Of a stretch of 64,000 nt of DNA, positions 9,430 to 61,343 are shown piece by piece (position 1 is the stretch's first letter; each line of letters opens with the position of its first letter). The position numbers were made by a program, and so were the translations under genes. The notes under the pieces are model-generated. The model made no database searches and was not told where the DNA came from. It saw only the letters and a list, made by a program, of their open reading frames with translations. The DNA is from Psammoneis japonica (Eukaryota), in the NCBI GenBank assembly GCA_008632985.1, contig QPGO01000061.1, positions 310,001-374,000 of the forward strand, in the 5' to 3' direction.

Positions 9430-11550
9430 CAGTGGTTGTTGTTGACGACACTGAGACGACACACGCCATGTGTTCTGATTCAAGAGCCACCAGCAGTCTT
9501 TAGCAGTAATCTTGCTGCTGGCTGCTGCCTTTCAAGTGTTCTTCTTGCCAACAGCTGGAAAGCGTTCTTTGCAAGCAGGCCACCAAACCACGACACCAAT
9601 TGTCAACTCCACATGTCACACTCCATCCTGCAGGATTCCACTGTGGAGCATGCACAATCTCTGCCACAAGAACAAGACACCATCTTCATGGTTGCATGCA
9701 GCGCAGCAGGAGACCCCATCTTGTTCCACACAGCTGTGCAGCAGTTGGCGGCACACCACCCTTGTGGGGATGGGCTCCCGTGCTTGCCCCACTCTGGTGA
9801 TCCCCATCACAACTCTTCCAAAATCTCAATGTCAACACACTGACCTGGAATGGTTGGAAAAACCTTGACTTGGTTGAGAGCATCGAGTTGCTGGCTCCGC
9901 CTGCCAGAGCCGACTCTGTGGCAAAAACGAAGTTCCCCGTGCAATCACACCATTTCCACCTTTGCTTGCAAGCAGAGTCCAAGGCAAAGACTGCCAGCCA
10001 GCATCCAATCCATTGATTGTTCCCAAACAGGTTCCTCAAACATTTGCATCTCACCCCACTGCCCAAAGAAATCGTTTCACATGGCTTGCCTCCTTGGCGC
10101 CAAAGTTCCCATCAGCAAGCAAATGCCAAAGACACCAACAAGAAGCAAGACACAGCTTTCTCCCGCTGGAAACAGGATCTTGGTGAGATTGGACTTGGAG
10201 ATGACCCATCCATGGATGACCTCACTGTCTCCCAATTGCGCCGAACCCTTGGAGCCTTTGCAGCAGCAGCTGCCAGGGAAGGCAGAGACACTCCTCCAAA
10301 CGACTCAACATGCTGGTGGCAGGGGCCATCAGCACTGCCACAGATGATGTGGCATTGGCATTCAGGATTTGCAACAGGAAAAATCCACAACTTGACAAAG
10401 ATTGGCAAGCATCTTGCCTTCTGTTGTGGCACCAATGCTGAGGATGCAAGAACCAAGACGGTCAACAGAAACGACAAAAAGTGATCACAGCCACACTCCT
10501 CTGAGTCCTTGCCAGAAACTGTGTGACCTGCAAAGACACAGCCACAACATCAGCAATGCAGCAATCCTGCAAATGCTCCAAGACTGCTGGCAGTTGATGA
10601 GCCAAGCTGCTGACACTCAAGAGTCTCAGCTTCTTTTTCAAGATGGCAGAGAACTCTCACTTTCAGACCCAGACTTGGCCTCAGCAGACATGACATCCAT
10701 TGTGATCACTTTGACTGTGTCATGTGCTGTCTGCACCAATTGCAAGCTGTGGAGCCTGCAATCATCCACCATCCTGTCTGAGATGAGAGTGGCAGGAACA
10801 GCAATCAGAAAGTGGCATTTTGAATTTGGGGTGTGTGAAGCACACAAAATTGGAGCCCATTCCATTTGATCAGGAGCAGCAGTTGAAATGTGTCTCAACA
10901 ACACACCTGTGCATTCCGTCATGTTGGTTGGCATGTGGTCATTAGATGCCTTCCTTTTGCACATCCACAAACAAGTGCAACATTTCAGTGTCAGCATTTC
11001 ATCCCGCATGATCAAACACCAACACTTCTTCACAATCCCAGACTCCAATGCAGAAGATCCAAGAGCAAGAAATCACCATGAAGTCCAAGCCACTCACAAC
11101 AACAATGGCCCATGTCAAGTGCAACTCATGTCTGCAAAACAAGGCATGGAGGCTTTACACTGCACCCTGCCATTCCTTTGAATGAGAGCAGCTCTCCTTT
11201 GTTCCTCAGATTGGCAATCTTCTTGGCTGCCTCAGCTTTTTTTGTCAACAGCCAGGCAACTTTTTTCTTGTGCCAGGTTGCTGAAAGATGCTCCAGCTGA
11301 GTCTGGCAAAATGTTGATTTGTTGGCATTGAAGTTGTGTCTGTTTCTTGAGATTGTTGTCATCATCTTTTGATTTATGACTGAACAAAAGAGAGTGGCAA
11401 GTGGAAAAACCCTGTCCTTGTTGGTGTGCCAGACCCCACTGTGATGTGGCACCCCTTTTTGATCAGCACGTTTGACCCTCAACCAATGATGAGTGCACCC
11501 AAGCTGAACAGCAACTTGTTACCCAAGCCCATCACCACCTCACACGCGAC
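9430..11550 (+). mobile_element. Heavily mutated relic of a tyrosine-recombinase (DIRS/Ngaro-like) retroelement
   Basis: IGAHSI*SGAAVEMCLNNTPVHSVMLVGMWSLDAFLLHIHKQV (10850-10980) matches the YR C-terminal H-S-x-R...GRWxSDAFxxYIR pattern; the block is almost free of TpA and CpG. Boundaries approximate. Confidence 0.7.
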
Positions 11551-11692
11551 TTTCCCTCACCTTGGGTCATTGATGCCCGCGCAATATTTTCATTGTGTTT
11601 CAACAGCCCAGCCTGTTGACAAGTGGCCCTTAACTGCTTCTAGTTAGGCATCTATTTTTAACTGCAATGCAGCACTAATTCCTCATTGACGC

Positions 11693-13600
11693 TCAACATG
11701 CATGCGCGATGTGGGCGGTCCGTAAGTCCGTGATTTGACTGGAGTTAATGTGAGATGGTTTCGCTCGCCTAACCCGACACACCGTCGAACATCCCGACAA
11801 TGAAGCAGGGCGGTTTTTACTCTTTTCAACACGAGCTTCCGCCCTCATCCACCTCCTTAAGCCGACGGCCACTCCTCCCCGTTCGATTCGCTGGCCGGTC
11901 ATGTCATCGAGATAGGACTTTTGAATGAAGAGTCCATGCATGTGATTGGAAGGAAGCCTTGAGCAATGTTGACTAAAGTAAACATTTGATTGACCATAGC
12001 AAAGCTCAGGTAGTCTGGAGTTTCAACACGGATGTAGAAGTTCCAAAGTTCGAAACCACCTCATCTGCCGTTGTAGGAATCTCGTTTTGGTTGAACGACG
12101 TCCAAATGAGTCGTCCAGTCTCGCGAAAGTGCTGTTCCAGTGAGCATCATTTGCGGTTGGCTTTGCAGGCCCCGAATATAAGATAAAAGCTTCCAGAGGA
12201 CTGCAAATTGACCATTACATTTCGCTAAGTTCGAGAGCGCTTGGAACTGCGGTCCTATCCATGAGTTGTACACCATTCTTCAACGTGAGGCCACCATTTT
12301 CAGGGGTAGATTCAAACCTATCTTGCTCCACAAACCCCCCAGGGACGAAGCACTTTGTCAAAAGTCTGTGCAAACAACTCCGCCACCTTTGGAAACAGTG
12401 TCACACCACGGAGATTGTGCCACACATCGTTGCCCACAACATTATTTTCGTTCGCTGATGCTGGTGCGGGAAGAACGCCCAATGGATTGTGGCCAAAAAA
12501 GGCAGGCAGCGTGTTGATCATACCGTCAGAAAAGACAATGACGTTCAGATCAACATGATGACCTGTATAACGAAAACCAAACTGACCGCTTCCCTCCATA
12601 TCACCGTACACGCTAATATACGTCACAATGTCACCTCTGGGATGTACAGTGTTTTCCTCAAAAATGTCATTGATATAGTACGCTTTGATCACTTCTGGTT
12701 CTTCGGTGTTGAGATTTCCATATAGAGCAAGAGGAATTTCCTCGCAGAGCCACGTAGCGTTCATGTCAGTGTTGTTTCTGTTGATTTCGTTGCATTGTCT
12801 ATAGGTTTTGCCTTCCTGCTGTTGAGTATTATTATGTTGAGAATTATTGTGGGCCATTTGCAAGTCATATGCCGTTCCTCCGCTCGAAAATTCAACACAT
12901 ACTCCTTTACAATCTTCGGCATAGTGTTGGTACTGTCCCAGCAAAAGATTAGCTTGTTCTTGCTGAAGAAGCACCTGATAGGATTCCAGCGTCATTGCAG
13001 CAGACAAAACGCGATACAGGAGATCCTTCTGGTCAGCTGTCAAGAGACTCACGGCCAAGCCGTACTTGGGAATCAGACATTGTTGAACGATGGTACAAAC
13101 CAGCCAGTGCTTCTGTTGCAACGTAGCATCTTCATAGTAGGTGCGATCTTTGAATGGCTTCGAGAGACTGCTTACGAACTCGCCTAAGCGTTTTCTTGTC
13201 AGTTCGACATCCATCTGTTCAACTTCCTCTTCGTCGACTGTCCCGGCATTGCCATCATTGCGACTTGCTTGGGCCCATCCAAAGAGAGCTGCGAACAGCA
13301 GGGTAAGGATTACAAAAATGATGAGAAAGACTTGAGTAGCACTGAGGCGTCTAGTAGCCTTCGTTTCACTGGCTTCAGGAATGTCCTCTTCTTCTCGCAC
13401 CGAAATATCCTCCTCTACTAGTGGCTCCGCTTGTCGCACCGTCGGTTCAGGCTGGATGCATCGAAGTACCGTTGTGATGGGACGTCGCCGACATCATCAG
13501 GAAGCACGACGCCGCCGCCCTCTTCTTCGTCGCTGCTCATGATGTTGACGTCGCCGGCATCATCATCAGGAAGAGTGACACCCTCTTCTTCGTCGCTCAT
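11693..13600 (-). pseudogene. DUF3500-domain protein with N-terminal TM anchor, frameshifted
   Basis: FGFRYTGHHVDLN...PAFFGHNP motif in 12318..13439; FYIRVETPDY and NHMH motifs downstream in other frames; probable start at 13600 in another frame. Confidence 0.65.
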
Positions 13601-13932
13601 GATGCGGAGTTTTTACAGCTCTGAGTGACACAAACGTAGTCTTCCTTTCTCGAATTGCTATTTGCTCTTCTTTTTTGGAACGATTGATTTCATGGGATTC
13701 CAAAGATATTTTCCGGGTACCTATTTGATTTGGAATACATTCATCAACGAGGATGTTGAATGTTAAAAATCTTTCAACGCTGTCAACCTCAACGCAAGCC
13801 AGAAGCTGCATACAGCATGCGTTTTAGACTACGTGATGTTATCCGCTGTCGAAAGTCGAAAGATATGATGCCCGGCCGAGCGAAGAGGGAGCCAGGGGAG
13901 TCTATCGCAAATTCGCAAAGTTGGAAGTAGCC

Positions 13933-15306
13933 ATGCATTCTCACCGTTTCTCGGTCGTCCTCATCTGCTGTCTGCTGGTAGAGGCCCTAACGATGAGTAC
14001 CTCCGGCTCTGCTTTTAGTGGCAAACAAAGTGGGGGAGGGAAGAACCTCGTGGTGCTGAGCGATGGTACAGGCATGGAGCTCAAGGGAATGGATAAAAAC
14101 TCCAACGTTCTACGCCTTCTCCGTGTACTATCACGCAACGATGATGAGCAACGTGTTTACTACGATCCTGGTATTGGGACTGTCAAGAGTATCAATCCTT
14201 GGAGTATACTTCGAGCCAAGTTCAGCTCCGTTTTTGGTCTTGCTACCGGACAGGGATTGGATGAGGCTGTCCTTTCCGCTTATACATTCCTCATGACGAA
14301 CTATAAGGAAGGAGATCGCATCTACCTCTTTGGCTTCAGCCGTGGGGCATACACGATGCGCGTCCTTGCTGGATTCATTCATGTCGTTGGACTTCTTCAC
14401 CAAGACCAAGAGAACATTCTCCCATATGCTCTCGTTGCCTACAAGGAAGCAGGAAATGAATACGGCGGAATACCTAAAGACTATCGTTCCTCAATACCAA
14501 AAGAAAAGTTAAAGGCTGAAGCGGAGGCCAAGCGATTGGGAAAGCTTTCCGGAGCGCGACAAGTCGATATTCACTTTGTTGGCGTATGGGACACTGTCAA
14601 CTCGGTTGTTGTGCCTCGGCCCGATCGGTTTTTTATTCCATCGATTCAGAAGCTCCCATACACGAGAGGCAATCCCTCTGTGACGAATTTCCGTCATGCT
14701 TGTGCCATTGATGAGAGACGTCGAATGTTCCGTGTCAATAAATGGTTGTTTCCAAATGGTGAAAAGGTGTCGACCGAGGACGGCCGCGTGCTTAAAACTT
14801 CGACCAAACAGGTATGGTTTCCGGGTTGTCATGGCGATGTTGGCGGCGGATGGGCAGAGGAGAGGAGCGGATTAGCCAAACATGCCATGAAATGGATGGT
14901 TGACGAGGCGACTCAGGAAGGAATAAAGATTGACAATGATTTGTACAAGAAAATCTGTCTTGGTGAGGGAGAATGCGGACCTACAGTCATTGCCGGCGAT
15001 GTAGCTTGTTCACCTCCCAATTCACTTGGCCCGATCAACCACTCTCTCACCTTGGCTTGGAAACCTCTTGAGATCTTTCCAAAAGGAACCATGTGGAAAG
15101 AATGGAACCTCCGGTGGTCATTCCTTGGGTTTTACATTCCATGGGCCGAACCGCGCCCAATCCCTGCTCATCATGAGCTTCATTTTTCCGTCCGCGAGCG
15201 CATGGAAGGAGATCCCACGTACCGTCCGCCCAACGTGATGGCGTACTTGAAAGAGGTCGAGGAGAGTGACTCCCGGGCTCCAACAGAAGTGACACCTCTG
15301 GCCTAA
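13933..15306 (+). CDS. DUF2235 / Tle1-like alpha/beta hydrolase with putative signal peptide
   Basis: LVVLSDGT, YYDPGIGT, LFGFSRGAY, VGVWDTV, RHACAIDERR and VWFPGCHGDVGGG motifs; intronless; ATG at 13933. Confidence 0.9.
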   Translation: MHSHRFSVVLICCLLVEALTMSTSGSAFSGKQSGGGKNLVVLSDGTGMELKGMDKNSNVLRLLRVLSRNDDEQRVYYDPGIGTVKSINPWSILRAKFSSVFGLATGQGLDEAVLSAYTFLMTNYKEGDRIYLFGFSRGAYTMRVLAGFIHVVGLLHQDQENILPYALVAYKEAGNEYGGIPKDYRSSIPKEKLKAEAEAKRLGKLSGARQVDIHFVGVWDTVNSVVVPRPDRFFIPSIQKLPYTRGNPSVTNFRHACAIDERRRMFRVNKWLFPNGEKVSTEDGRVLKTSTKQVWFPGCHGDVGGGWAEERSGLAKHAMKWMVDEATQEGIKIDNDLYKKICLGEGECGPTVIAGDVACSPPNSLGPINHSLTLAWKPLEIFPKGTMWKEWNLRWSFLGFYIPWAEPRPIPAHHELHFSVRERMEGDPTYRPPNVMAYLKEVEESDSRAPTEVTPLA

Positions 15307-15399: not shown

Positions 15400-18300
15400 G
15401 GTCGGAGATGTTGTCCTGCATGAGTGCTGATGATGACGATGTTGTCATGCGGTTTGTCTTGAGGCGGACTCCATTCAATGCAAGTCGTGTCGAATGCCTT
15501 TTTGTCGATTATTTTGGACTTCACCCAAGTTTTCTCTTGTGCTGGCTGGAAGCTGCACTTGCTCAAACAAAGAACAACGACCTTTCTGTTGCACTTGTCG
15601 GCCATTTTTCGGTTTAACGCAGTGTTTTGGCTTTTGTGTTTGGGCGGAGGATGTGGTGTGTTTTCTGTTTGTGAGTGCAACTCTCAAGGTCACAAAACTT
15701 TTAATGTGTCACAGCACATGATGGCGTTAAGAACAACAAGATGGTCAATGAAGCTGCCAAATGCCATGCTGCTCAGTTCTGTGCCACAATGCCAGACACT
15801 GCCCCCCTCATGCAGGACGTTTCTTCTCCAAACAGTTGCAGGTCACTGGCACTTAGAGTGTCCTCGACAAATGAGAGAGTTCAGTCAGTTGGCTCTTCTC
15901 TTTCTTGTCTTGAGCAATGAAAATTTGCACCAAGGCAAATGCAGCATTGCTGCTCACAATGGCAAGTTGGAGAAGCAGATTCTGCCAAAGGATTCTGCTG
16001 CCCTTGCTGACTCAAGTGGTGGGCAGCTCACCTTTCTTGCCAAACACCTTCTCCTTGACCGGACATGCGCTGCCTTGTGCCACAACTTCTGCAGGATGAT
16101 TTTCTGCTGCCAATCTCATTGAAAAGTTGCCAGGGTGTTCTCAGTCTTCTTGCTGCCAGCCTGGCTTGGCTGCCAGCTGCTCACTGTTCTCATTGTGAAC
16201 CCTGCTGGTTTGTGGTGCAAAATGCTTTCTTTTTTTTTTCACAGAAGCTTGGTTCAAGTGCCAGTGGTGGCCCAGCACTGGCCTGCTGCACAGGAGGGCT
16301 GGTGCTAGATGCAACATTGAGATGGAGGCCCCAGCACAGCCAACCAACATGGGAGCTTGCATTTGCCAGCTGGCTGCACTGCTTGTCAAATTAACAACAC
16401 ATCCACAATCTGTGGTTGCCTTGTTGATGCAGCTGTGCCACCAGGGTGGCCTGGCAACTCTTCTCTGGTGGACCCCAGCAAACTCCACAGAGAGAGAGAG
16501 AGAGAGTGGCAATCATTGAGGAGCTGATGCAGAACACTCCTGAGTGCATGAGAGCATGGGTGAACTACATTGGCATGGCAAGGAATTTGCACAGAAAAAA
16601 GTGCAAGGGGTGCAGCAACAGTTGGAGCATGAGCTTGGGCTCAATTGGCCTCAGAGAATGGACAATGACATTTGACATGTGGGGTGAAGTTCTGATTGTT
16701 TCATTTTTTCCCTGTCAAGTGACGGCTTTTGGGATGATGCTGAGTGACACAAACACCATTTGGTGGCATGGCAAGCGGCAATCTTTGAGTCACTCATTTG
16801 TTTGGTTGAAAAACTGGGTGCAGTCCAGCCACAATGATGCACCAACAGCTGCACAAAAGAGCTGCAAACTCTCTTCAATTCAGAAATCTACAAGAGCCAC
16901 TGGAAGGTGCTCCTCTGAGCTTGCGCTGGCAGAATGACAATGCTGAATGAGCACAAAACTTTGAGAAAGCTGGAGAGTTGAGAGAGATGCATTTTTTACA
17001 AGGACTTGCAATGTGTGCTCCTTGCACTCCTCATCAAATTTGTTGTGGCATCAGCATGACAGAAACCATGCCAAAGTCACAAAGATTAAAGCTGCAGCCC
17101 TCGTTGCTGGTCACTTTTCTTGGAGAGAACATGCCCCCAAATCCAGGCCCAAGAGCACACAGCAACTGGTGGCCCAGCTTTCAACATGCACACACACACA
17201 CACACACAGTGCCTGGGTGCCTGCTCTCTTGCTTGGTGGTCATGTGCCTTCTGGTCTCATGTCTGCAACAAGACTTCCTCTCAAGCACAAATCAGTCTGG
17301 AGCAATGTCAGCCACCAGCATGACAGAAAAGTTGGAGCAGCAGTGCCAGCCCCACAGGTGGCAAGTGCTGGTTGGCCTGGATGACTGTCACTTGTGAAGT
17401 CATGCTCTGATGCAGTCCTGTGGCATGTGATGTTTTGAGGGTGAGACATTCCAGCCAATTTTGCCTCTGTTGATTTTTGTTTTGGTTGACAAGCCACTTC
17501 CAACAATGTGCTCACACACCCACCACATTGCAGCCAGCATCCCCACCCTCACTTTGCTTGCCACTCCAAATGACACAACACTCTTGTTGTTTGTCCTCAC
17601 CTTGCATCTGGTCCTGGCTTCTTGTGATCCAGCCAAGAGAAAGCTGCAGCATCCTCACACACAGCTTTTTGCTGTTTGGGCCATGTTCAAAAAATGCACT
17701 TTGCAGAAAGAGCTCAACAAACACAGCTTGGTGCCCCTGCTGAAAGAAGGGTGAGCTGACCAGCACAGAAGAGGGAGTGGAGTGACAGTGCTGCAGCTGG
17801 GCCCTGTGCAAGGCTGTGTGCAGTCAGAAAGCCCAGAGCAGTGTGGCCTGCCAATGCCTTCAACCAAAAAATGACTTTGAGCCTTGACACCAGCTGTCTT
17901 CAATGAGTTGTTTTTACCCTTGTTTTCACTTGAGCAAACACTGTCTGCTTCAAACCAATCTTGAGCAGTTGAAAGGAAATCACACCTGCAACAACAAAAG
18001 GAGCAAGCTTGGAGTGTTCCAGGAAAGCACCAAGCAGGCCACCTGAGGTGCCGCTGTCCACAGTGCATCCAGGACAACAGCAGCACTCAGAAATCTAAGA
18101 ATTCACAACACAGCCACACCCAAAGTGGTGCAAATGAGAGCAGGAAAGAACTTGAGATTTTCCAGGTGAGAAGCACAAAAACTGATTTTTCCCCCCCTCC
18201 AACATGAACACCAGCTGATGGCTGCCTTCTCAGGAGGAGCAGCTGAAGGTGTGTTCCATTGTGCCACAGCAACCTTGAAGAAAAGAGCAGTTGTGTTCTG

Positions 18301-18689
18301 AGACAAAGGTGGGGGGTGGTCACCAGGTGCAGGTGGCACAGCAGCACTGACCATTGTTTTGACAATGATGTGCACAGAAGGCATTTGCCACATGGGGCAG
18401 CAAGTGCTTTGCCACCAACCAAGGACAACATTGTCAGAAATGATGATGCTTGCCCCCCAGCTTGTGCAAGCAGCAACAGGCAAGCTGTCCACAAATGAAG
18501 CCATCTGCTGTTTTGCACTTGCCCGTCTGTTTGTGATCAGCGCTGTTGCAAATGTTGCAATGAAACAAAGCCAGCAGCAGCAACAACAACCATGATTGTT
18601 CATTGCAGTCTCTGCTTTTTCTCAGTGCCATTGTTGGCAGTGCCCCATCTGTGAAAATGGGTGATGATTGCTGCATCATGGGAACCAAC
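15400..18689. other. Unidentified degenerate TpA/CpG-depleted block, left part (target of the Copia insertion)
   Basis: Roughly a dozen TpA in about 3.2 kb by hand count and few CpG; no recognisable domain; continues after the TSD at 25802. Confidence 0.6.
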
Positions 18690-18965
18690 TGACAGGATTT
18701 GAACAGGATTTGGATGCGCGCGAAGTGTCGCGCGCTGTTTAGTTTACCGCGCACAGTTTTGTGTGCTTTAGTTCCGCGCGTTCACGCGCGATGTAGTTTG
18801 CTTTCGAGCCACAAGGCTCACAAGAATAATAACAGTAGCCCGATTATACCGACTTACACGTCTTTCGGCTCCTGTAACGGTCTCTGAGCGGAGACTCATC
18901 TGCTATTTAGACAGCAGTAAGGAGTTATTGTTTGAATTCTTGCCATTTGCCTTCAATTTCTGTCA
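18690..18965 (+). repeat. 5' LTR
   Basis: TGACAGG...CTGTCA, 276 bp, 267/276 identical to the 3' LTR. Confidence 0.97.
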
Positions 18966-19912
18966 GATTAACAGTCTTGCTCATTGTCAACCCATTGAGC
19001 AACCGCCATCGTCGTCGGTGATTTACCAACGACGCTATTTCAATTCTACGTGGACCTCCGTATATATTCTACATACATCGGCAAGTCTACGCGCATTCAA
19101 TACCAGGGCATCGGCAGGAAGTTAACGTCACCGTCAAGTCTCCTTACCGCTGGATATCTGGATTGATTATACTACCTTTGATCGCTGAAGACTTATATTC
19201 AACGGTCATGTCCAAGTCTATCCTTGATCAACATCCCTTGGGTGCACCTGTTCCTCGGTCAACGGTCAAGAACCCTGCACATTCAAGGATCTTAGTCGCT
19301 GAAGACACATGCGCGCATGTGTGTGCATGTCTTCACGGCCAAGAACCTTTATCCACTCTTCGGACTGCGGTTTTGCTGCCACTCTACAAGCACACCGAGT
19401 CCATTGCACCTGATCCCACCCCGGACTGCTGGTGCTCCACAGTTCTGCTAGGTCCACGAGGACGACTGTGAGAGCAAGCAGCCGTGATTGCAGCCTGCGT
19501 TGGGGCGAGGGTGCTTTCCCGCGTTTGTTCGTTCGTCCACAGCGCCCAACGCCTGCGTCAACTGGCCAGCCTGATCGGGAAATCCAACCGACATAAAATG
19601 AGAACGGTTCGGGGGTCTTGTCCACCTCTGGTCAGCTTGCCTGCAGGGGTTTACAACCCGCCACTCTGCTTGCAAGCAACCCAAAGCGCCACCAGCTGCG
19701 GGTTCGGACGTGCCGGCACAACTCTACGGACCGGACAGGAAGTTTGGCACTTGACAACGAACGGGATGACAAAGCCCGGCAACTTCTGATTTTAAGATGG
19801 TTCAAGATTTCAAGTCAAGTCTGTTTCAAGTCAAGTCCATTCTCACCCAAGTTTCGAGTCTGCCTTCACTTCCCAACCAGAATTGACTGTCCTGACACCA
19901 CTTTTGTCTGCC

Positions 19913-22900
19913 ATGGTTCTCACTCGTCAGCAACAAACCGATGGTTTCGAGCACGTTGTTGGAACCGTGCTTGCCCAAGGTGCTGGGAGTCCTCTTCGTT
20001 TGGCTTTGGCCCAAGACGGCACGGACTCGCATCAGGAACTGTTCACGTTCATGCCGTCCCAAATCGACTCGCTTGAGTGCGACAACGGCACTGATGCAAT
20101 CCCTTTGCCCCGTGGTTGCAAGAACATGTCAGCAGCACCAGTTGGTCTGCACATTGTCAAAGCACACAAAGGTCTTGACGTTGCCAACGACTCCTCTTTG
20201 TTCACGCATGACGAGTTCCTTGCCCCGCCTCAGCCCCGACTGCATGTCTTCTGTGTCCATCGGCAGCTCACCCCTTGCACATCCACATGTCACCAACCAG
20301 ACCAAGGCACGCGACCCGGTGCGAGACTTCAAGCGAGGCATCAAGCGTGATCCCACCGCTTTCACGGCTCTCAAATCCGACAAGCAGCGGCACACTTGGC
20401 ACACCTCACTTGTGGCACAAGCCCATGCCCAAGACGTCGAGTGCATTCTAGACTCGTCGTACAAACCGACCAGCCCCGAAGACAAACTGCTCTTTGCTGA
20501 ACAGCAAAAGCACATGTTCGCCGTCTTCGAACGCATCCTTCTCACCGACAAGGGCAAGGCTCTCATTCGCGAAAATGTGGGGTCTTCTGACGCACAGACC
20601 GTCTGCCGCTCCTTGTCTGAGTGCGCGCTTGCCTCCACCCGCGCATCTGTCGAGTCCTCCACCCTGCTCACGCACCTCACCACCGCACGTCTTGGTGATG
20701 GCACTTGGAAAGGTCCGACCCACGGGTTCATCCTTCATTGGCAAGATCAGTTGCGCAAGTGCGAGGCACTCATCCCGGCCAGTGACCACTTCTCTGAAGG
20801 ACAGAAGCGCGTCATGCTCGAGAATGCCGTGCACCCTGTCGAGGAACTCCGTGCTGTCAAGAACCAAGCTGATCAGCATCGTACGCAGAGTGGCAAGAGC
20901 CTCACATGCGATCAATGCTGTGGCTTGCTCCTCTCCGCGGCAGCTCAGTGCGACAGCACGTTTCAACCCAAGACGACACCTCGAGCTCCCCGACGCGCCA
21001 CATGCGCACACGACGTCTGCTCCGAGGAACCGTCCGACGATGTGTTCTACGACATTGACAGCGACGTTGACGTCCTTCAAGCCAATGCTGCCTGCACCCG
21101 CGGTCCCAGCCTCACCGGTGTCCAATGGAGACGTCTCCCTCCCGACCACCAACGGCTCTGGGATTCGTTGCCCGATTCCTCCAAGGCGATCATCCTTGAG
21201 CATTCTCGTCCGCCTCCCCGCAACCCGCGAGCCAGCAACTGCCATGAGTCTGTTACGGCCAACCTTCACGACCAACACCTTGGGAGTGACGGTGATGTCA
21301 ACTTGTCCAACACGACTCCTGCTGACTGTGGTGACCCCGCTGCACATGTGGACGCCACTTCGGATAATCCCATCCTGGCGCACCTCACCAAGCGCAAGCC
21401 ACTGCCACCCGGTGATCTGCAACGTCTGTTGTCTCCTAACCAAGCCCCCAATGCCAGTCGACCGGGGCCATCCGCCGCTTCCTCTACCCCGCCAGCTTCT
21501 GCAGATGACATGGAACTTAACGGCCGCACTTGCCGCCGCGTCAACAACCACAATGTCATTTGCTCTGCCTCTGCTCATCGCTCCACACGCACTGGCGCTC
21601 TAGTCGATCGTGGGGCCAACGGCGGCATTGCTGGCGACGACGTTCGCGTCATTGCACGCACCTCTCGCCAAGTCGATGTTCAGGGCATTGACGATCATCA
21701 GTTGGTGGACATCCCCATTGTCACCGCTGGTGCCGTCATTGAGACCCAGCGTGGTCCCGTCATCGCCATCCTCCATCAGCACGCACACACGGGAAAGGGC
21801 AAGACCATCCATTCCTGCGGCCAGCTCGAATGGTGCAAACAGGATGTCAACGATCGCTCTGTCAAGGTGCCCAACGGCTTGCAACGCACTGCCACTCCTG
21901 ATGGCTATGTCATCCCCATTGACATCAAGGCTGGCCTGCCTCATGTTGCCATGCGACCTTACACTGACGCCGAATGGGACACCCTGCCCCATGTCATCCT
22001 CACCGGTGATGACACATGGGACCCTTCCGTCCTCGATCACTCTGTCACTGACGACGATCAGTGGTGCGACGCGATCTCTGACCTGCAGGACGATCCCACT
22101 GCCAACCTGTTTGACGAATGCGGCAACTGCCGTCACCGTGTCGTTGTCAACGAGACCATCTTGTCCGCTTCCTTGTCTGCCGATCACGCGTCCGCCCTCG
22201 ATGATCACCTCATTCCGAACGACGACGTGTTCTACGAGTGTCATCTGCATGCGATTGACCCCAAGGGCGATGACGTTCCACCTCCGGAGCGCACTGCACA
22301 GCCCAAGGACCCCCCTTCGAGTCTCTTCGGCCTTGCTTTGGCTTCCCACCTGCCGATGCGGTCCGTCGTACTTTTGACTGCACCACGCAGTGCGCCCGCA
22401 TGCCCGCCGGTGCACACCTTCGCAAGGCCTGCAAATCACCCAACCCCGCCCTCAATGTGCACCGCCGCAACGAGCCCATCGCCACTGACACCGTTCATGC
22501 CGACACCCCGGCCGTCGACTCTGGTTGCACCAGCGCCCAACTGTTTGTTGGCACCGAGTCTACCGTCACTGACGTCTACGGCACTAAGACGGACAAAGAG
22601 TTTGTCAACACACTCGAGGATCAGATCCGTGAACGTGGTGCCCCATCCAAACTCATTAGCGACCGTGCTCAAGTTGAGATCAGCAACAAAGTGCTCGGGA
22701 TCCTGCGCGCCCTCTTCATCTCCAGCTGGCAAAGTGAGCCTCACCAGCAACACCAAAACTTTGCCGAACGTCAACACCAGACCGTGAAGCGCATGGCGAA
22801 CACTGTCATGGACCGTTTTGGTTCGCCCCCCACACATGGCTGCTGGCGCTCATGCACGTGTGCTTCACACTCAACCACACAGCGTCCCCACGTCTCCACT

Positions 22901-25520
22901 GGCGCACGCCCCTCGAGACTCTCACTGGATCCACCCCGGACATCAGCCCATTGCTTCGCTTTCACTGGTGGGAACCAGTGCACTTCCACCTCGATGACTC
23001 CGATTGGCCGTCCGAATCCCGTGAGTTGCGTGGACGCTTCGTTGGCATTGCTGAGCACGTCGGCCACCAGATGACCTTCAAGATCTATCTGACGAGACTC
23101 AGAAGATCCTCTGCCGGTCCAACGTTCGCTCCGCCACCCCGATCCTGCCGTTCGAAACCTGCGTCTTGATCCTCCTGATGGGGAGCCACCTGAACCCATC
23201 ATCAAATCTCGCCATGACGACAACCCCGTCGATTCTCCTGATGGGGAGATCAGGACACCCAAGATGCCAGTTTTCGATCCGCAAGACATCATTGGACGTA
23301 CCTTCCTCATGCAGCCACAAGAGGATGGACAACGCCACAGAGCTCGCATCGTCAAGGCCGTTGAAGACCACGAATGGAAAGTGAACGGCAATCCTGAGCT
23401 CACTAAGTTCGTCTGCTCTGTCAACAATGACGAATACGAGGAAGTCCTTGCCCACAATGACATCATGAATCACATTGAGCGAGAAGACGAAGACACCACC
23501 ATTTGGAAATTTCGACGCATCGGTCACACGAAGGACCTCTGAAGCCTCACGACCCAACCTGGAAAGGCTCAAGCTACAACATCATGCTTGAATGGGAAAG
23601 TGGGGAGATCACGTCCGAGCCTCTTGCCATCATCGCCAAGGACGACCCCGTCACCTGTGCCATCTATGCACGAGAGAACGGACTCCTCGACACGGATGGC
23701 TGGAAGCGGTTCCGCACTATCGCGAGGCGCCAAAAGAAGCTATTTCGCATGGCCAACCAAGCCAAGCTTCGCTCCTTCCGCACTGCACCTCGCTACAAGT
23801 ACGGACACGAAGTTCCCCGGAACTACAAACACGCCATGTCACTAGACGAACGCAACGGCAACCGCAAGTGGGGAGACGCAACTAATCTCGAGTGGACCAA
23901 CTCACGAATACGAAGTCTTCCATGACTGCGGGCCCTTCAAGTCTTCCACTCCTCCTGCGGGACACAAGAAGATCCGAGTGCACCTGGTGTGCGACGTGAA
24001 ACACGACGGTCGCCACAAGGCACGACTCGTAGCCGACGGGCACCTCACGGACGTACCTGTCGACAGTGTCTACTCCGGAGCAGTCTCCCTCCGTGGCCTT
24101 CGGCTGATGATTTTCCTGGCCGAACTCAACGAGCTGGAGACATGGGCCACCGACATTGGCAATGCCTGCCTTGAAGCCACCACCAAGGAGAAGCTTTACA
24201 TTGTAGCTGGACCCGAATTTGGCAAACTCGAAGGACACATCCTTGTCATCCACAAGGCACTGCATGGACTGCGCAGCTCCGGTCTCCGCTGGCACGAGCG
24301 CTTCGCCGACTGCCTGCGAGCTGAAGGCTTCTTCCCCTGCCGCGCCGAACCCGACATTTGGATGCGCAGGAACGGCGACCACTGTGAATGCATTGCCGTT
24401 TATGTGGATGACCTCGCCATTGCCATGAAGGACCCTCAATCTTTCGTCGACACTCTCACGGAAAAGCACAAGTTCAAGCTCAAGGGCACGGGACCCATTG
24501 AGTTCCATCTGGGTTGCGACTTTTCTCGGGACCCCGACGGAACCTTGTGCCTGTCTCCGCGCAAGTACATCGAGCGCATGGTCGACAGCTGCGCCCGACT
24601 GTTTGGGGAGAAACCTGCCACCAACACCCTGTCACCTCTAGAGAAGGGTGACCACCCCGAACTGGACACTTCCGAACTGCTGGGATCCAATGGCATTCAC
24701 AAGTTCCAGTCTCTTGTTGGTTCACTCCAATGGGCAGTGTCCCTTGGTCGAATTGACATTGCCACGGCTGTCATGTCACTCTCTAGCTTCCGAGCTGCGC
24801 CCCGTCAAGGCCACTTGGATCGTGCCAAACGCGTCTGTGGGCACCTCTCCAAGATGCGACACGGTGCTCTCCGCGTTCGCACGGAAGAGCCCGACTGTTC
24901 GGATCTCCCTGCTCCGGCATGTGAATGGATGCATTCCGTGTGTGGTGAAGCAGAAGAGATGATCCCGAAGGACGCTCCACCGCCCCTTGGCAAGTTCGTC
25001 ACTGCCACCCACTACGTCGATGCAAACTTGTGCCATTGCATGCTCACCGGATGCTCTGTCATGGGAATGCTCCACTTCCTCAACAAATTCCCGGCTGATT
25101 GGTTCTCCAAGAAACAAGCCACCGTGGAGACTGCAACCTACGGATCTGAATTTGTTGCCGCAAGGAATTGTGTTGAGCAGATTGTCGACCTGCGCATCAC
25201 CCTGCGCTGCCTTGGCGTCCCGATCCGCAATGTTAGTTACATGTTCGGTGACAACAAGTCGGTTGCAGACAGTGCCACCATCCCGCACTCCAAGTTACAC
25301 AAGCGACACACCGCACTGTCGTTCCACCGTGTGCGTGAGGCAATTGCCTCTGGTTGCCTTGAGTTCCACTTCATCGAAGGCTCCCGCAACCCTGCTGACA
25401 TTCTCAGCAAGCATTGGGGTCACTCCCAAATCTGGGACCTTCTCCGCCCCCTCATGTTCTGGAACTTCATTCCATCCGAAGTCGAATCTGTTTCTGTGGC
25501 TCCTCAAGCAAACTGGGGAG
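19913..25520 (+). pseudogene. Copia gag-pol, frameshifted and Tyr-depleted
   Basis: gag FKRGIKRD; protease LVDRGANGG; integrase ATDTV..D, ISDRAQVE, SEPHQQHQN; RT KHDGRHKARLVA, YVDD; RNase H YVDANL, TYGSEF, FGDNKS, NPADILSK; several frameshifts. Confidence 0.95.
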
Positions 25521-25796
25521 TGACAGGATTTGAACAGGATTTGGATGCGCGCGAAGTGTCGCGCGCTGTTTAGTTTACCGCGCACAGTTTTGTGTGCTTT
25601 AGTTCCGCGCGTTCACGCGCGATGCAGTTTGCTTTCGAGCCACAAGGCTCACAAGAATAATGACAGTAGCCCGATTGTGCCGACTTGCACGTCTTTCGGC
25701 TCCTGCAACGGTCTCTGAGCGGAGACTCATCTGCCATTTAGACAGCAGCAAGGAGTCATTGTTTGAATTCTTGCCATTTGCCTTCAATTTCTGTCA
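25521..25796 (+). repeat. 3' LTR
   Basis: Copy of 18690-18965 with 9 substitutions, all at TpA sites. Confidence 0.97.
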
Positions 25797-25801
25797 CCAA
25801 C

Positions 25802-27480
25802 TTTTTGAGGGATGCAGGCTTTTGGGGTGTGCATCAGTGGAGAAGAAGGCTGCTCCATTTGTGGCCAGAACAAGCGCCATTGCAGCCCATGCTTTGGATG
25901 CTTTTTTGATTCTTTGAGCCCACAGAAGGTTTGGCAGTGCAGCTGCATGAGCCCCTGTTCCCTTTGGACCCACACAGGGTGAGATCTACCCAGACGCCAC
26001 TTGCATGCCCCAAAACTTTGACCCTGATGCTGAAAGAAACAATGACAGGAGAGCCAAGCTTGTGCCACTGAAAATCCCGCCAGCTGAGTTGACAATCCAC
26101 CCTGCATCTTTAAAATCCAGCAAGGGTGGCAACTTGACAGCAATGTGTGGCTGTGTGGACATGACCTTTGAAGTTGGCCCAGCACAAGATGGTGATTTGC
26201 GGCAGTTTTTCACTGATTTGAAGGGTGAGTTGTTGGCCAAAACATGCAAAAAGTCTTTGGACAGGGATGTCAAGGTTTCAAAGAAAGGCCAACACATGCA
26301 ATCTGAAGTTTTTGTGCAATGAATTTCAAAATGCAACAAGGAAGGAAGATGAGAAGACAGCTGTGACAGGCTGATCAAAGTCATTTGTGACAAGTGCTCT
26401 GCTTGAGTGCTTCAAAAACTTGAAGCACCAAAGCACAGCTGCCCCAGCCAAAGGAGAGGAGGCACAAACAAAAGTCCCACCCCCTCCAAAGGGAATCAAT
26501 GCCTGCAGCAATCACTGCCCCAGTGAATGAAGAAAGGTGCTGGCAGAGCCAACTTGAGCCTTCAAAGCAGTGCTGCTTCTGCATCAAGGAACCGACTCTT
26601 GCCTCAGACAAGCTTCTCAAGCTCAGGGCATGACTGCCCCCCCACTTTGAAGATGTGGTGCCTGCTGAGACTTCAGGAGCCATGACCAAAGACTTTTGCA
26701 CAACTGTGCACTTGAGCTGCTTGCCAATGAGTGCCATCATTGTGGGGTTCACTGCTGCAGCACCGACAGCTTTGCTCAAAGTTTCCAAGATGAAAACAAA
26801 CGCGGTGCTGCAAAAGAAACAAGGTTGGCTCTCATTTGCAAACACCCTGCAGCACCAAGACAAAAATGAAATGAACTTTGAGAATGACAAACTGATGAAC
26901 TTTGTTGAAACATTCTGTGCAGAGACCTCACAAAGCCAGCAGCTGGCTGTTGTTTGCCAACAGCAGCAAGCCCCCAAGAAGCATCAGAATTTGGGGAAAA
27001 GGCTTGCTCATGTTTTTTTTGACTCAGCACCCAGCTGCCACTGTCAACAATCACTGCCCAAGCTTCAAAATATGATGGCTGGAGCACCTCATGTCAGTGG
27101 ACAAGCTGAGTGGGCAAAGACCAAAATCCCGTCACAGACAGGGTGTTTGCCACCAGAGCCCGCCCCCCCCAAGAAGAGAAGCCTTCAAGTGTGGGAGCTG
27201 GCTGTGAAGTTCTTGTCAAAAAGGCAACAAGAAGCAAGCCCATTGACAAAAAGACCATTGAGAATCAAAGTGTTGCTGGCCTGTGTCCAGAGTTGCATGG
27301 CTGTTTTGCAGCAAACTTTGAACAAAAACTCTCGCACTGCTCTCAAAGTTTGCCAGTGCACACAGCACAGGAGTCCATGAGGAGCTCTCAGGATTTGTTC
27401 TTGTGATTTTCTCATGAAGAATGGAACAGGAAATCAGAAAATTGGTGAAAGGACCATTGAGATGCCACCCAGCAAAAAGT
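25802..27480. other. Unidentified degenerate TpA/CpG-depleted block, right part
   Basis: Same composition as 15400-18689 and contiguous with it across the TSD. Confidence 0.6.
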
Positions 27481-27795
27481 GACGCCGCCGGGATGCATCA
27501 TGGTGCCGCAGGTTTCATCGCTTGGATGGAAGGAGGTGTCTTTCTTGTGTTCGCGTCCGTTTGAATCAGGATTTTGGGGGCGGGTTCCCAACCCGGATAA
27601 CAAACGTTCCAAAAAAGATATTCCAAAGATCCATCAATTGCGACACAACATGTCGCTAATTCTTCGATGACGATGGCGGCGAAACACGAAATAGTAAGGC
27701 CAAGTCACAAAGCTCTCACAAGCCTAGAAATGACGAATGGTCCATGGAAGCACTGGTAAAGCCATCACAAAAGGCACTGCAAAAAAAAAAGCATC

Positions 27796-29197: not shown

Positions 29198-32100
29198 TTA
29201 GGGACAGTCCGGTACCGAGCCATCACTAGAAGGGCTTCTGGGAGGGTCGACACAAACAGGAGCGGACGTTGGCCCATAGTTGGTAGAACTGCAATCGAAA
29301 TTGCCACCACCCGCGGCACCGTTGCAACAATAGTCGTCACCAGTTGTTTGGCAAGTGTAAATACCACCAACCGTGCTGCTTGCAACATCGGGACAAAATG
29401 GCAAATTCTGAACATTATCTCCAAAGGCGCAAAACGTTGATGGGTGCGGCGGAGTGTTTTGGTCCGCTTTAAGACAGCCTGTTCCGCATGTGGTGCTGCA
29501 CGTTGAAGTGCCGAGCGCTCCAAGTGCGACCTTGACGCATCCGCTGGTTGCAGGGCAGCATTTCGCTCTATTGTTGTTGTCGGTACTGACAATCTCGTAT
29601 GCATCATCACACAAAGTCTCTTTCGCTGTGGTGCATAGTCCTGAACCCTGACAGACAGAATTGACACAATCCTCGTTGGAAGCGCAATCAGTCTCGTCGT
29701 TGCACGAGGGGCATGGGTTATTACACCTTCCATTACTTGTATCGCACGCCGCCGAGCAGTCGCAGTCAAAGTTACAACTTTCGCCTTGGTTATTTCTTTT
29801 GGTCAAGCAAAAGTTTGAATCGCACTCACACTCGCAGGTATTCGGGTTGCAAGTTGCTCCCGCATTGTCACCAGGGCGTCCACCGCAGTCATTGTCTTGA
29901 CTGCAAGATTCGAGCAAGCCGTCGGCGTCAAACTTCGTCACGCATTGTCCAGTAGTAGGTGAATCAGAGGGAACTCCCGACGGAACATCACTTGGCAAGC
30001 TCGATGGAACGTCACTCGGTGACTGCGACGGAGTTTGGCTGGGCATGTCAGAAGGAGCATTCGACGGGATGCTGCTCGGCGCGCTTGATGGAACGTCACT
30101 TGGCATGAGTACTGTGGGACTTTGACTTGGTGAATCGGACGGAATTCCCGACGGTACGTTGCTCGGCGAGCTCGAAGGCATGTCACTCGGTGATTGCGAA
30201 GGAGTCTCGCTGGGCTGATCAGATGGAGCACTCGACGGGACGTCACTTGGTGTCGTTGACGGAACGCTCGAGGGAACGTCACTCGGCGTGCTGGAAGGCT
30301 CAACGCTAGGCATTGCCGATGGCACGTCGCTCGGAGCACCACTGGGCAACATACTAGGTTGACTGGAAGGAGTGTCACTGGGTACAGAAGATGGTTCCTG
30401 GCTAGGTGTATCAGACGGAACCCCCGACGGTACGTTGCTTGGCGAGGTAGAAGGCACACTGCTCGGTGATTCCGAAGGAGTCTCGCTGGGCTGATCAGAC
30501 GGAGCACTCGACGGGACGTTGCTTGGTGTCATCGATGGAACGCTTGACGGAATGTCACTTGGCATGCTTGAAGGCTCCATGCTAGGCATTGCTGATGGCA
30601 TGTCGCTCGGAGCACCACTGGGCAACATGCTAGGTTGACTGGAAGGCATGTCACTGGGTACAGAAGATGGTTCCTGGCTAGGTGTATCAGACGGAACCCC
30701 CGACGGTACGTTGCTTGGCGAGGTAGAAGGCATGCCACTCGGTGATTGCGAAGGAGTCTCGCTGGGCTGATCAGATGGAGCACTCGACGGGACGACACTT
30801 GGTGTCGTTGACGGAACGCTCGAGGGAATGTCACTCGGCGTGCTGGAAGGCTCAACGCTAGGCATTGCCGATGGCACGTCGCTCGGAGCACCACTGGGCA
30901 ACATACTAGGTTGACTGGAAGGAGTGTCACTGGGTACAGAAGATGGTTCCTGGCTAGGTGTATCAGACGGAACCCCCGACGGTACGTTGCTTGGCGAGGT
31001 AGAAGGCATGCCACTCGGTGATTGCGAAGGAGTCTCGCTGGGCTGATCAGATGGAGCACTCGACGGGACGACACTTGGTGTCGTTGACGGAACGCTCGAG
31101 GGAATGTCACTCGGCGTGCTGGAAGGCTCAACGCTAGGCATTGCCGATGGCATGTCGCTCGGAGCACCACTGGGCGACATGCTGGGTTGTTTGGAAGGCA
31201 TGTCACTGGGTACAGAAGATGGTTCCTGGCTAGGTGTATCAGACGGAACCCCCGACGGTACGTTGCTTGGCGAGGTAGAAGGCATGCCACTCGGTGATTG
31301 CGAAGGAGTCTCGCTGGGCTGATCAGATGGAGCACTCGACGGGACGGCACTTGGTGTCGTTGACGGAACGCTCGAGGGAATGTCACTCGGCGTGCTGGAA
31401 GGCTCAACGCTAGGCATTGCCGATGGCATGTCGCTCGGAGCACCACTGGGCGACACACTAGGTGACTGGAAGGATGTCACTGGGTACAGAAGATGGTTCC
31501 TGGCTAGGTGTATCAGACGGAACCCCCGATGGTACGTTGCTTGGCGAGGTAGAAGGCGCACTGCTCGGTGATTCCGAAGGAGTCTCGCTGGGCTGATCAG
31601 ACGGAGCACTCGACGGGACGTTGCTTGGTGTCGTCGATGGAACGCTCGAGGGAACGTCACTCGGCATGCTTGAAGGCTCCGTGCTAGGCATTGCTGATGG
31701 CATGTTACTCGGAGCGCTGCTGGGCAACACGCTAGGTTGACTGGAAGGAGTGTCACTGGGTACAGAAGATGGTGCCTGGCTAGGTGACTCAGACGGAACT
31801 CCCGACGGTTCATTGCTTGGAGAGTTCGAAGGCGCTTCGCTCGGGGATTGCGATGGATTCTCGCTGGGCTGATATGAAGGAGCACTCGATGGGACGTTAC
31901 TTGGTGTCATCGATGGGGCGCTCGACGGAACGTCACTCGGCGTGCTGGAAGGCTCAGCAGTGGGCGTTGCTGATGGCATGTCACTCGGAGCACTGCTGGG
32001 CGACATGCTGGGTTGTTTGGAAGGCATGTCACTGGGTATAGAAGATGGTTCTTGGCTGGGTGTGTCAGACGGAACTCCCGTCGGTACATTGCTTGGCGAG

Positions 32101-33329
32101 CTCGAAGGCATGCTGCTCGGTGATTGCGAAGGATTTTCACTGGGCTGATCAGACGGAGCATTCGATGGTACGCTGCTTGGCATCATCGATGGAACGCCCG
32201 ACGGAACATTACTGGGCACACCTGTGGGATCATCGCTGGGCACTGCTGATGGGATCGCACTCGGAGCACCACTGGGCGACATGCTGGGTTTTCCAGTGGG
32301 TGCCTCACTGGGGACCGAAGATGGTGCCTGGCTGGGTGCATCAGTCGGAACCCCCAAGGGTGCGTCACTTGGCGAGCTCGAAGGAGTGTTGCTTGGTGAT
32401 TGCGAAGGATTCTCACTGGGTAGGTTAGATGGAGCACTCGACGGGACGTTACTTGGTGTCAATTGGCTTGGTGTTTGAGAGGGAACATCGCTTGGTGAGC
32501 TCGAAAGAATGGCACTCGGTGACTGCGACGGAGTCTGGATGCTTGGCACGTAAGAAGGAGCGCTCGAGGGTGCGCCACTTGGTGTGGACGATGGCACGTC
32601 TGATGGAGCTTCGTTGGGTGTTCTCGTGGGAGCTTCGCTGGGAGCCGCTGACGGCGTGGCACTAGAACCACTGGTTGGCGACTCACTTGGCTGACTGGAC
32701 GGGGCGTTGCTCATCCCGGATGTTGGTGACTGGCTCGGCGTTTGAGAGGGAACGTCGCTAGGAATTGCTGATGGTATCTTACTCGGAGCGCCAGTGAGTG
32801 ACTCACTTGGTCGACTGGACGGCACGTCCGATGGTTCGTCACTTGGTGTGCCAGAGGGAGCGGCCGATGGGACGCCAGGGTCGGGCAGGAGACGAGACGG
32901 CACTTCAGAAGGCACGTCAGAAGGAGCTAAACTCGGCTCAGCGGTAGGATCAATGTCCGGCAGTCTGGTAGACGGTCGTAGGGTGGGCCTCGGTTTGGGC
33001 CTCCAGGTGAGCCTGACAGGCCGCCTCAAGAATCCTTTTCCCTTTCCTTTGGCTTTCTTCGGAGGACCCCGTTTGGGAGGGCCCCTCTTGGGACGCCTCC
33101 TCCTTCCCTTGCCTCCCTTTCCCTTTGCTCTTCGTTGAAAAGAACCGGGAGGTTTGTTGTTTCCGCCTTCTCCCCCTTTGATTCTTCCGCCTGTTCTTCC
33201 TTTCGAAATCTTTCTCTTTGTCGTATTTCCTCTCCCTACTTTGCCGCGATTGAGAATGTTATTCTGACCAAAACCGAACACCGAGCAAGCCATGAAGGCT
33301 GAGAATAGCACCAGAGTGAAAAATCGCAT
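29198..33329 (-). CDS. Secreted Pro/Ser-rich mucin-like protein with basic N-region and Cys-rich C-terminal domain (one frameshift near 31470)
   Basis: Signal peptide MRFFTLVLFSAFMACSVFG; K/R/G-rich segment; PSxx repeats; Cys-rich tail. Two 1-bp deletions relative to neighbouring repeat units near 31462-31475. Confidence 0.8.
30130..32200 (-). repeat. Coding tandem repeat, 276-bp (92-aa) higher-order unit
   Basis: Anchor TCACTCGGC at 30279, 30831, 31107, 31383, 31657 and 31933 (spacing 552, 276, 276, 274, 276). Confidence 0.9.
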
Positions 33330-60654: not shown

Positions 60655-61343
60655 TAGGCAGGGCCCCAATCACTCAATTCCGCCGACGCAACAACACCAA
60701 CACATGCAAACCCATTAGGCCCTAGCAGTGCACGCCCATGATGGACAAAGTGCTTCCATTCGTTCTAGCCCTTACGCGTCTGCTTTTTTTTAATTATTAT
60801 GGTTGGTGCATGTTTATTGTGTCGCTCGGCATAATAACAACATATGAAAAATCAGTGCAGTGCAATATCCGAGCGATTCGTAGATACCCAGGAATATGGA
60901 ATTTGATTGGCTGAAACACGTCACAGTTACAGATGGGGCAATACTATCTTATCGCGGTCGACCGTTGAGCTCACAATATTTCAGTTGCAGACGCTCACAA
61001 TTACTCGATCACCAGCACGATGCAATACGAGTGCTTGCAACAGCAAAACGTATGATTCTTAAAATTTTCATCAAATCCAGATCTTCAAGGAATCAAAATT
61101 GGAATCGGATTGGCGTTAAATGGCAATGTCGAATTTCAAGACCAATCACCGACGACGACGAAACAAGAATGGTTTGCGGTGCACAAAACCACGTCTGGTT
61201 TATCATTTCTTCATGTTGTCGTGCACGGAATGAACTCGGAAACAAGCACAAGCATCAGTGTAAAGAGTGTTGAACAAGAGAATAACAACCAAAAGCGATA
61301 CGCACCGGTCTCGTTCAACCGCATCCCACAATAAGACAAGATC

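Follow-up and report, generated by a model that had tools for sequence, protein, structure and literature searches.

In a stretch of 64,000 nucleotides from the diatom Psammoneis japonica (GenBank assembly GCA_008632985.1, contig QPGO01000061.1, positions 310,001 to 374,000; referred to as the window), a Ty1/copia retrotransposon with long terminal repeats (LTRs) and four older blocks of DNA are depleted of the dinucleotide TpA, which has been replaced by CpA or TpG. Survival of the remaining TpA depends on the flanking bases. This dependence is short-range and incomplete, and its direction is clear: sites preceded by T and a pyrimidine (TTTA and TCTA; TAAA and TAGA on the other strand) are retained in excess. 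A preliminary description of the region, made from its letters alone, had proposed that TTTA and TAAA resist the mutator. The observation was confirmed and its interpretation partly supported, as TTTA is not special and forms part of the wider T-pyrimidine-TA class, which fits the old blocks, the young tract and the paired sites. The best explanation, held with moderate confidence for its parts taken jointly, is a conversion at the DNA level that turns TpA on either strand into CpA or TpG, takes place in silenced tracts with sharp edges, and proceeds at a rate modulated by the two bases on each side of TA such that T plus pyrimidine before TA lowers conversion roughly 3-6-fold. All counts and rules derive from this one 64-kb window, the sample consisting of 92 surviving TpA and 54 paired sites.

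Conversion of TpA and its dependence on flanking bases

The copia element (18690-25796) has TG...CA ends, a CCAAC target-site duplication and LTRs of 276 nt; the finding of the preliminary description falls within its 3' half. Its open reading frame (ORF) for reverse transcriptase (RT) and RNase H is at most 70% identical to proteins bearing Pfam domain PF07727, with one named relative from the diatom Cylindrotheca fusiformis. The element is nested in an older tract (15400-18689 plus 25797-27597) that is stripped of both TpA and CpG. The following features were distinguished, with dinucleotide content given as the ratio of observed to expected counts (o/e).

18690..18965, forward strand: 5' LTR of the Ty1/copia element; all 15 TpA present, used as the 'before' state
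25521..25796, forward strand: 3' LTR, used as the 'after' state; 9 of 15 TpA converted (5 to CA, 4 to TG), four TTTA and two other TpA kept
18690..19299, forward strand: unconverted 5' part of the copia element; 36 TpA, o/e 0.84
19300..25796, forward strand: young converted tract of the copia element; 59 TpA left, TA o/e 0.20, CpG intact (o/e 0.90), conversion patchy
9510..11625, no strand assigned: old converted block A; almost free of TpA and CpG, 5 TpA left, 2 of them TTTA/TAAA
15400..18689, no strand assigned: old converted block B1, host of the copia insertion; 13 TpA left, 5 of them TTTA/TAAA, single-copy depth
25797..27597, no strand assigned: old converted block B2, continuation of B1 past the insertion; 3 TpA left, 1 of them TTTAAA
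56091..58335, no strand assigned: old converted block D; of 12 remaining TpA, 7 are TTTA/TAAA, and four of these lie in TTTAAA (TA at 56272, 56713, 57031 and 57076)

In the old blocks, o/e was 0.05 for TA, 0.16 for CG and 1.80 for CA/TG, compared with 0.57 for TA in the background formed by the rest of the window. Depletion was restricted to TA (plus CG in the old blocks), CA/TG was enriched, block edges were sharp, and neighbouring genes were spared by the TpA loss. None of 20 ORFs taken from the old blocks reached the family threshold in a Pfam search, and the origin of these blocks is not recognisable.

The two LTRs differ at nine positions, and at all nine the 5' LTR has TA where the 3' LTR has CA (five) or TG (four). 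Tyrosine codons of the element were compared with those of related proteins. In 16 columns with tyrosine in at least 80% of 53 homologues, the window has six Y, six C, three H and one F; over the whole polyprotein, 43 mostly-tyrosine columns compared with 47 metagenomic relatives read 14 Y, 13 C, 12 H, three F and one W, with 25 of the 29 changed columns being Y to C or H. As the relatives have tyrosine where the window has C or H, TA is the older state. The 25 conversions among 39 inferred tyrosines include invariant residues, and the reading frame is split into several ORFs. Over all 54 paired sites, the 34 conversions were balanced between CA (17) and TG (17).

Contigs from the sequencing run of one sample that contains this DNA were aligned to positions 15401-25520. 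Transitions made up 372 of 423 variant places, and at 170 places other copies have A/T where the window has G/C. The copia family is very abundant, with 13,983 aligning contig pieces of run X1 and a summed depth of tens to hundreds of thousands as compared with 56-65 in the flank. Among 80 related copia loci from metagenomes, which served only as family-specific background, none was TpA-depleted (minimum TA o/e 0.48, median 0.70). Four of these loci (L003, L007, L021 and L023) are CpG-poor (o/e 0.16-0.24) but have kept TpA (o/e 0.48-0.64); CpG decay in copia therefore occurs without the TpA process.

The test of flanking context on the LTR pair requires no background. All four TTTA sites (18740, 18745, 18769 and 18908) were kept, whereas 9 of the other 11 TpA were converted and those at 18827 and 18836 kept (one-sided Fisher test, p = 0.011), in agreement with the counts of the preliminary description. 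For the old blocks, pyrimidine-purine (YR) steps were counted per flank context and the TA share of these steps was taken from unmutated DNA, given that the process only interconverts YR steps. Fifteen of the 33 surviving TpA are TTTA/TAAA. In unmutated DNA 226 of 1634 TpA are of this type, and with an expectation of 13.6% after YR normalisation the binomial p-value for the old blocks is 9.5e-6. The earlier remark that many residual TpA of the old blocks are of this type thus holds, and all seven positions listed for it were correct. Estimated survival was 0.31 for sites flanked by 5' TT or 3' AA, with 15 kept of about 49, while all other sites survived at 0.058 (18 of about 310). At sites with one such flank it was 0.21 (10 kept of about 47), i.e. 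about four in five were lost. The longer the T-run 5' of TA, the higher the survival, which went from 0.056 without T to 0.14 with one, 0.34 with two and 0.49 with at least three.

The direction was the same in all four old blocks, with single p-values of 0.088, 0.014, 0.47 and 0.0007 (two of four below 0.05). The enrichment was robust to trimming of 150-300 nt at the edges and to removal of TTYRAA sites (p = 0.0014-0.019), and likewise held whether background was drawn from ORFs (p = 4e-6) or from other DNA (p = 2e-5). A rate model based on half-sites was superior to a uniform rate (likelihood-ratio test 39.3, 2 degrees of freedom, p = 3e-9). The hexamer TTTAAA occurs five times in 9.4 kb of old blocks compared with twice in 41.8 kb of background. 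Applied to the young tract, the same background gave a survival of 0.39 for TT/AA-flanked sites and 0.21 for others (p = 0.054).

TC-flanked sites ranked second in the old blocks (survival 0.22) and first in the young interior (0.46-0.54), and in the paired set TCTA/TAGA was kept at four of four sites (p = 0.015). A logistic model with region-by-context terms gave odds ratios of 3.2 for the TT flank (p = 0.009) and 4.1 for the TC flank (p = 0.001). The combined class TYTA/TARA made up 22 of 33 surviving TpA in the old blocks (23.6% expected, p = 1.8e-7) and 25 of 59 in the young tract (p = 1e-4), and of its paired sites 9 of 11 were kept as opposed to 11 of 43 others (p = 0.001). Between 19300 and 21100, 8 of 11 kept TpA lie in TYTA/TARA, compared with 1 of 10 sites that are TA-like in other copies but CA/TG in the window (p = 0.006); the 10 lost sites come from 40 of 428 contig variant places.

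The effect is local (two nucleotides on either side), incomplete, and due neither to general AT-richness nor to avoidance of A-tracts. In the logistic model the AA 5' flank term was negative and not significant, and AT content 3-8 nt away had no significant effect; regional AT-richness was rejected as a cause on the latter result. AT content of the four nearest bases gave a borderline positive term (p = 0.056). Short A-runs of one or two bases 5' of TA (AATA, AAATA) survived below average (0.018-0.022), and for A-runs of at least three bases 4 of 20.4 expected sites were kept (survival 0.20). The preliminary description had envisaged an enzyme-like sequence preference or a DNA-shape preference that avoids A-tracts. 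A short-range effect, as an enzyme-like preference would give, is borne out by the response to T-runs, the agreement of all four old blocks and the lack of an AT effect beyond the two nearest bases; the A-tract part does not stand, given the low survival of AATA and AAATA and the sparing of TCTA/TAGA alongside TTTA. Likewise, retention does depend on flanks, as it had claimed, but the sites are slowed rather than resistant, as seen from the one-flank survival in the old blocks, from the coding interior and from converted codons among the following four.

24401..24403, forward strand: retained YVDD tyrosine codon, TAT preceded by GTT (TTTA context)
24197..24199, forward strand: retained KLY tyrosine codon, TAC preceded by CTT (TTTA context)
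21561..21563, forward strand: counter-example, inferred TTTA tyrosine; Tyr in 84% of 31 relatives, TGC after ATT in the window (TTTA to TTTG)
22496..22498, forward strand: counter-example, inferred TTTA tyrosine; Tyr in 64% of 42 relatives, CAT after GTT in the window (TTTA to TTCA)

The first two are the codons to which the preliminary description had drawn attention, and both are indeed intact.

Boundaries and targets of the converted tracts

Conversion of the copia element starts at about 19200-19300. The 5' LTR and the first 500-600 nt or so are normal in TpA, even though conversion reached the 3' LTR, whose sequence is identical, and the inner edge is sharp. In the adjoining old block (15401-18690) depth was 56-65 in sequencing-run contigs of at least 80% likeness, while summed depths of the adjoining copia element were 41,000-315,000. 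With single-copy depth, this block is not a present-day repeat, yet it is fully converted. At 16306, a surviving TpA in the same block, the run contig has C where the window has T (CA versus TA), which may be a strain or haplotype difference arising from the same process.

Several repeated sequences of the window are unconverted: a 24-nt tandem array in a long ORF (52868-54300, TA o/e 1.43), a 276-nt tandem array (30096-32325), and a 2.6-kb duplicated gene pair (50982-53554 and 60955-63524) of 86% identity. The 305 differences within this pair show an ordinary spectrum, and its use as a before/after comparison was rejected for that reason. As the tandem arrays and the gene pair are untouched and block 15401-18690 is single-copy, repetition alone does not explain targeting.

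Intact genes with normal TpA lie between converted blocks. One, at 13837-15303 on the forward strand, encodes the catalytic domain of a phospholipase like Tle1 of the type VI secretion system (DUF2235-type, E = 8e-83); the other, at 12321-13493 on the reverse strand, encodes a DUF3500 protein. In block D, positions 56690-56760 carry short AGCACC repeats, each leading into a T/A-rich run (AGCACC-TTTAAAAAAG, AGCACC-ATTTCAAAAAC, AGCACC-TTCAAATGC). They resemble variants of a single motif, with TTTAAA retained in one case and converted to TTCAAA in the others.

Strand choice, mechanism and rival explanations

In 22 of the 34 paired conversions the edited A is followed by C. Where just one adenine of a TA had a 3' C, that adenine was hit 14 of 18 times and passed over four times (p = 0.031). 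A hand count of the tyrosine list gave five kept and six lost for TACG and six kept and 13 lost for other TAC, i.e. no effect of G at position +2. A retention effect of TACG, for which composition had given an estimate of 0.29-0.32 at CG-flanked TA, was discarded as unsupported by the tyrosine list.

The simplest mechanism would be that the editing activity prefers some substrates over others. This activity would most plausibly be a deaminase that has the A of 5'-TA-3' as its target, in line with the proposal made for this signature in the alga Bigelowiella natans (bioRxiv 10.64898/2026.01.13.699255); adenine deamination as the chemistry is taken over from that proposal by analogy. Each TA would present two target adenines, one per strand, and loss of either would destroy the site. 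A TT/AA flank appears to disable one of the two. If so, survival at one-flank sites should equal the square root of survival at sites without such a flank, and TTTAAA with both flanks should be nearly immune. One-flank survival was 0.21 compared with a square root of 0.24 (from 0.058) in the old blocks, and 0.39 compared with 0.45 (from 0.21) in the young tract, and by its counts TTTAAA has hardly been touched; these figures are consistent with such a one-strand model. The activity would behave like an enzyme that reads about two bases on each side, with an obligatory 5' T, a favoured 3' C and a disfavoured 3' purine-A, the latter being equivalent to 5' T-pyrimidine on the other strand. Conversion of TYTA/TARA is slow, so these contexts, although not immune, come to make up most of the TpA left when a tract nears saturation. 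The cause presumably lies in the preference of the enzyme and not in repair.

A number of results weigh against this reading. The half-site model was not significant in the young tract (p = 0.23). Among the tyrosine codons, which lie outside the data of the preliminary description, 2 of 4 in TTTA context and 12 of 35 others were kept (p = 0.45), i.e. TTTA alone was not confirmed. The coding interior (19900-25520) was without TTTA excess: two TT/AA-flanked TpA were kept where about 21 originals were expected from 28 related elements, or about 11 with GC-matched relatives by a rough scaling from the share of the RT-RNase H region. Interior survival of TT-flanked and other sites was 0.10 and 0.17 with the 28 relatives, and 0.12 and 0.18 with the GC-matched ones. 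This shortfall is weak evidence against the TTTA rule, short of refutation, because conversion in the interior is patchy (15 TpA kept in 23400-24100, three in 20000-21000) and the right background is uncertain; composition-based estimates for the interior depend strongly on the background chosen and were given little weight. Of the 15 class sites in the old blocks, four adjoin a recurring GCACC motif in block D. As to which adenine is protected, the two converted TTTA codons split 1:1 between TG and CA, and CpG decay and composition confound the counts of TTTG and TTCA in the old blocks. The expected original counts depend on backgrounds taken within this window or borrowed from other species. 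Finally, the rules were picked after viewing the same 64 kb (TTTA in the preliminary description, TCTA and 3' C in the present analysis), which makes the p-values optimistic. The paired-site and strand-choice results would fail a strict correction; with correction for the 16 possible flanking dinucleotides, the TTTA result in the old blocks remains at about 1e-4 to 1.5e-4.

One rival reading is that there is no real context rule, and that the pattern stems from post-hoc choice, a small sample and a composition gap between converted DNA and background. The failure of TTTA alone on the fresh tyrosine data, the interior shortfall, the young-tract model and the repeated TTTAAA-bearing motif of block D all speak for it. 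It is nevertheless considered unlikely, as the old-block enrichment withstands the correction for flanks, all four blocks agree, the response to T-run length is monotonic, and the result is robust to three backgrounds and to trimming. Moreover, for chance composition to produce it, TA would need to have been the original state of TTYR sites 4-5 times as often as in any of the backgrounds, and the LTR pair yields its p-value without any background. A repair-based alternative holds that editing has no flank preference and that the lesion, for instance hypoxanthine opposite T, is repaired better in T-pyrimidine/purine-A contexts and is fixed there less often. The data measure fixed outcomes, and context-dependent repair would leave the same fossil record; a short-range effect suits a glycosylase or an endonuclease as well as a deaminase. 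The window holds no direct counter-evidence, but the strand bias towards 3' C would require a second repair preference, and we regard this alternative as rather unlikely.

The second option of the preliminary description, in which A-tracts or T-tracts of any orientation beside the TA step exclude the enzyme by their shape, would account for the climb of survival with T-run length, for the raised survival next to A-runs of at least three bases and for the borderline term of the four nearest bases. It is improbable given that A-runs of one or two bases fall below average, that the AA 5' flank term is negative though not significant, that TCTA/TAGA is no A-tract and yet survives at least as well as TTTA, and that AT content 3-8 nt away is without effect. 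Least probable is that surviving TTTA/TAAA sites were kept by selection (on the YVDD and KLY tyrosines or on LTR signals) or arose as new TpA after the mutator had acted. Both coding examples are functionally important tyrosines; however, the copy is dead, with 25 of 39 inferred tyrosines converted, invariant ones included, and a broken frame, and the old blocks match no protein family. New TpA as the source of the survivors was rejected, because modelled ordinary substitution gives 15-17% TTTA/TAAA and 45% is observed.

Comparison with known systems

In Neurospora and other ascomycetes, repeat-induced point mutation (RIP) riddles mobile elements with dinucleotide-specific transitions on both strands and in bounded tracts, is directed at duplicated DNA, and makes TpA from CpA. 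The process in the window resembles RIP in acting by dinucleotide-specific transitions on both strands of mobile elements within bounded tracts. In contrast to RIP it destroys TpA (TA to CA/TG), which is the opposite chemistry and direction, and it has converted block 15401-18690 at its single-copy depth of 56-65; RIP was ruled out on these two grounds. In section 12 of the Bigelowiella preprint (bioRxiv 10.64898/2026.01.13.699255), RIP is described as C-to-T mutation of sequences with high homology.

DNA polymerase eta has WA hotspots in somatic hypermutation (PMC7884765). Like this polymerase, the process in the window changes A to G at an A preceded by T, with TA being a hotspot on both strands. 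Unlike a WA signature, which includes AA, it leaves AA/TT undepleted (o/e 1.27 in the old blocks, 1.08 in the young tract, 1.16 in the background), and all nine LTR differences are at TA; the polymerase eta signature was rejected on account of the undepleted AA/TT. RNA editing of the ADAR type before reverse transcription predicts the same edits in both LTRs and was rejected because the LTRs differ at nine TpA; in addition, the converted tract runs on into the flanking old block. Amphioxus ADAT2, the one ADAT with demonstrated activity on adenines in DNA, has a preference for GAA (PMC10354150), whereas the target in the window is TA.

The same spectrum was reported by Mettrop et al. (bioRxiv 10.64898/2026.01.13.699255), who describe hypermutation that is restricted to TpA and affects giant-virus and virophage DNA integrated in the rhizarian alga B. 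natans. According to the preprint, the mutations are almost only A:T to G:C transitions, all at TpA and yielding TpG or CpA by strand; they are confined to foreign or repeat-like DNA with normal genes untouched, and sequences poor in TpA and rich in CpA and TpG are enriched in reverse-transcriptase domains. In the window, similarly, all nine LTR differences and 25 of 29 changed tyrosine columns are A:T to G:C transitions at TpA, and the loss is confined with sharp edges (TA o/e 0.57 in the background, 0.05 in old and 0.20 in young tracts), though the old blocks are of unrecognisable origin. The evidence differs in kind, as new mutations were seen in culture lines of Bigelowiella whereas the window holds fossil sequence in diatom DNA, in which CpG loss accompanies the older tracts. 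The words 'context', 'flanking', 'trinucleotide' and 'tetranucleotide' are absent from the main text of the preprint, which gives no flank rule; its Table S2 of mutated sites may bear on the point. A literature search, with the supplementary tables of the preprint outside its scope, brought up neither an account of TpA loss in diatom repeats nor one of a flank rule.

TpA-erasing hypermutation is known from a single public report, a preprint of 2026 that concerns another alga, and has no enzyme assigned to it. The flank preference is provisionally taken as a refinement of a process that is itself new to the literature. If reproducible, it would be the first quantitative fingerprint of a TpA-erasing activity, would show which adenines are good and which are poor substrates, and could allow a direct comparison with deaminases or repair enzymes that are candidates for it. 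For annotation, surviving TpA in old converted DNA form a biased set, in which TTTA, TCTA and TTTAAA motifs need not be functional, and estimates of the extent of conversion of a tract should allow for slow sites.

Natural TadA recognises U33-A34-C35-G36, with the adenine preceded by U/T, and TadA8e has a minimal YA preference (PMC10586758). The preliminary description had named TadA-derived editors and polymerase eta as points of comparison. The latter does not match; for the former, the obligatory 5' T in the window (all conversions are at TA) and the excess of edited A with 3' C (22 of 34) lean towards TadA, while the tyrosine list, unlike U-A-C-G, shows no preference for G at +2. As a tentative possibility, the mutator might read an extended motif, with T-A-C favoured and T-A-purine-A (i.e. 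T-pyrimidine-T-A) refractory and the adenine of each strand judged separately, a fingerprint that would be expected of an anticodon-loop-type (TadA/ADAT-like) adenine deaminase recruited to silenced DNA. If true, the extended motif would let the enzyme of a diatom genome-defence system be identified by matching its in vitro specificity to the genomic scar.

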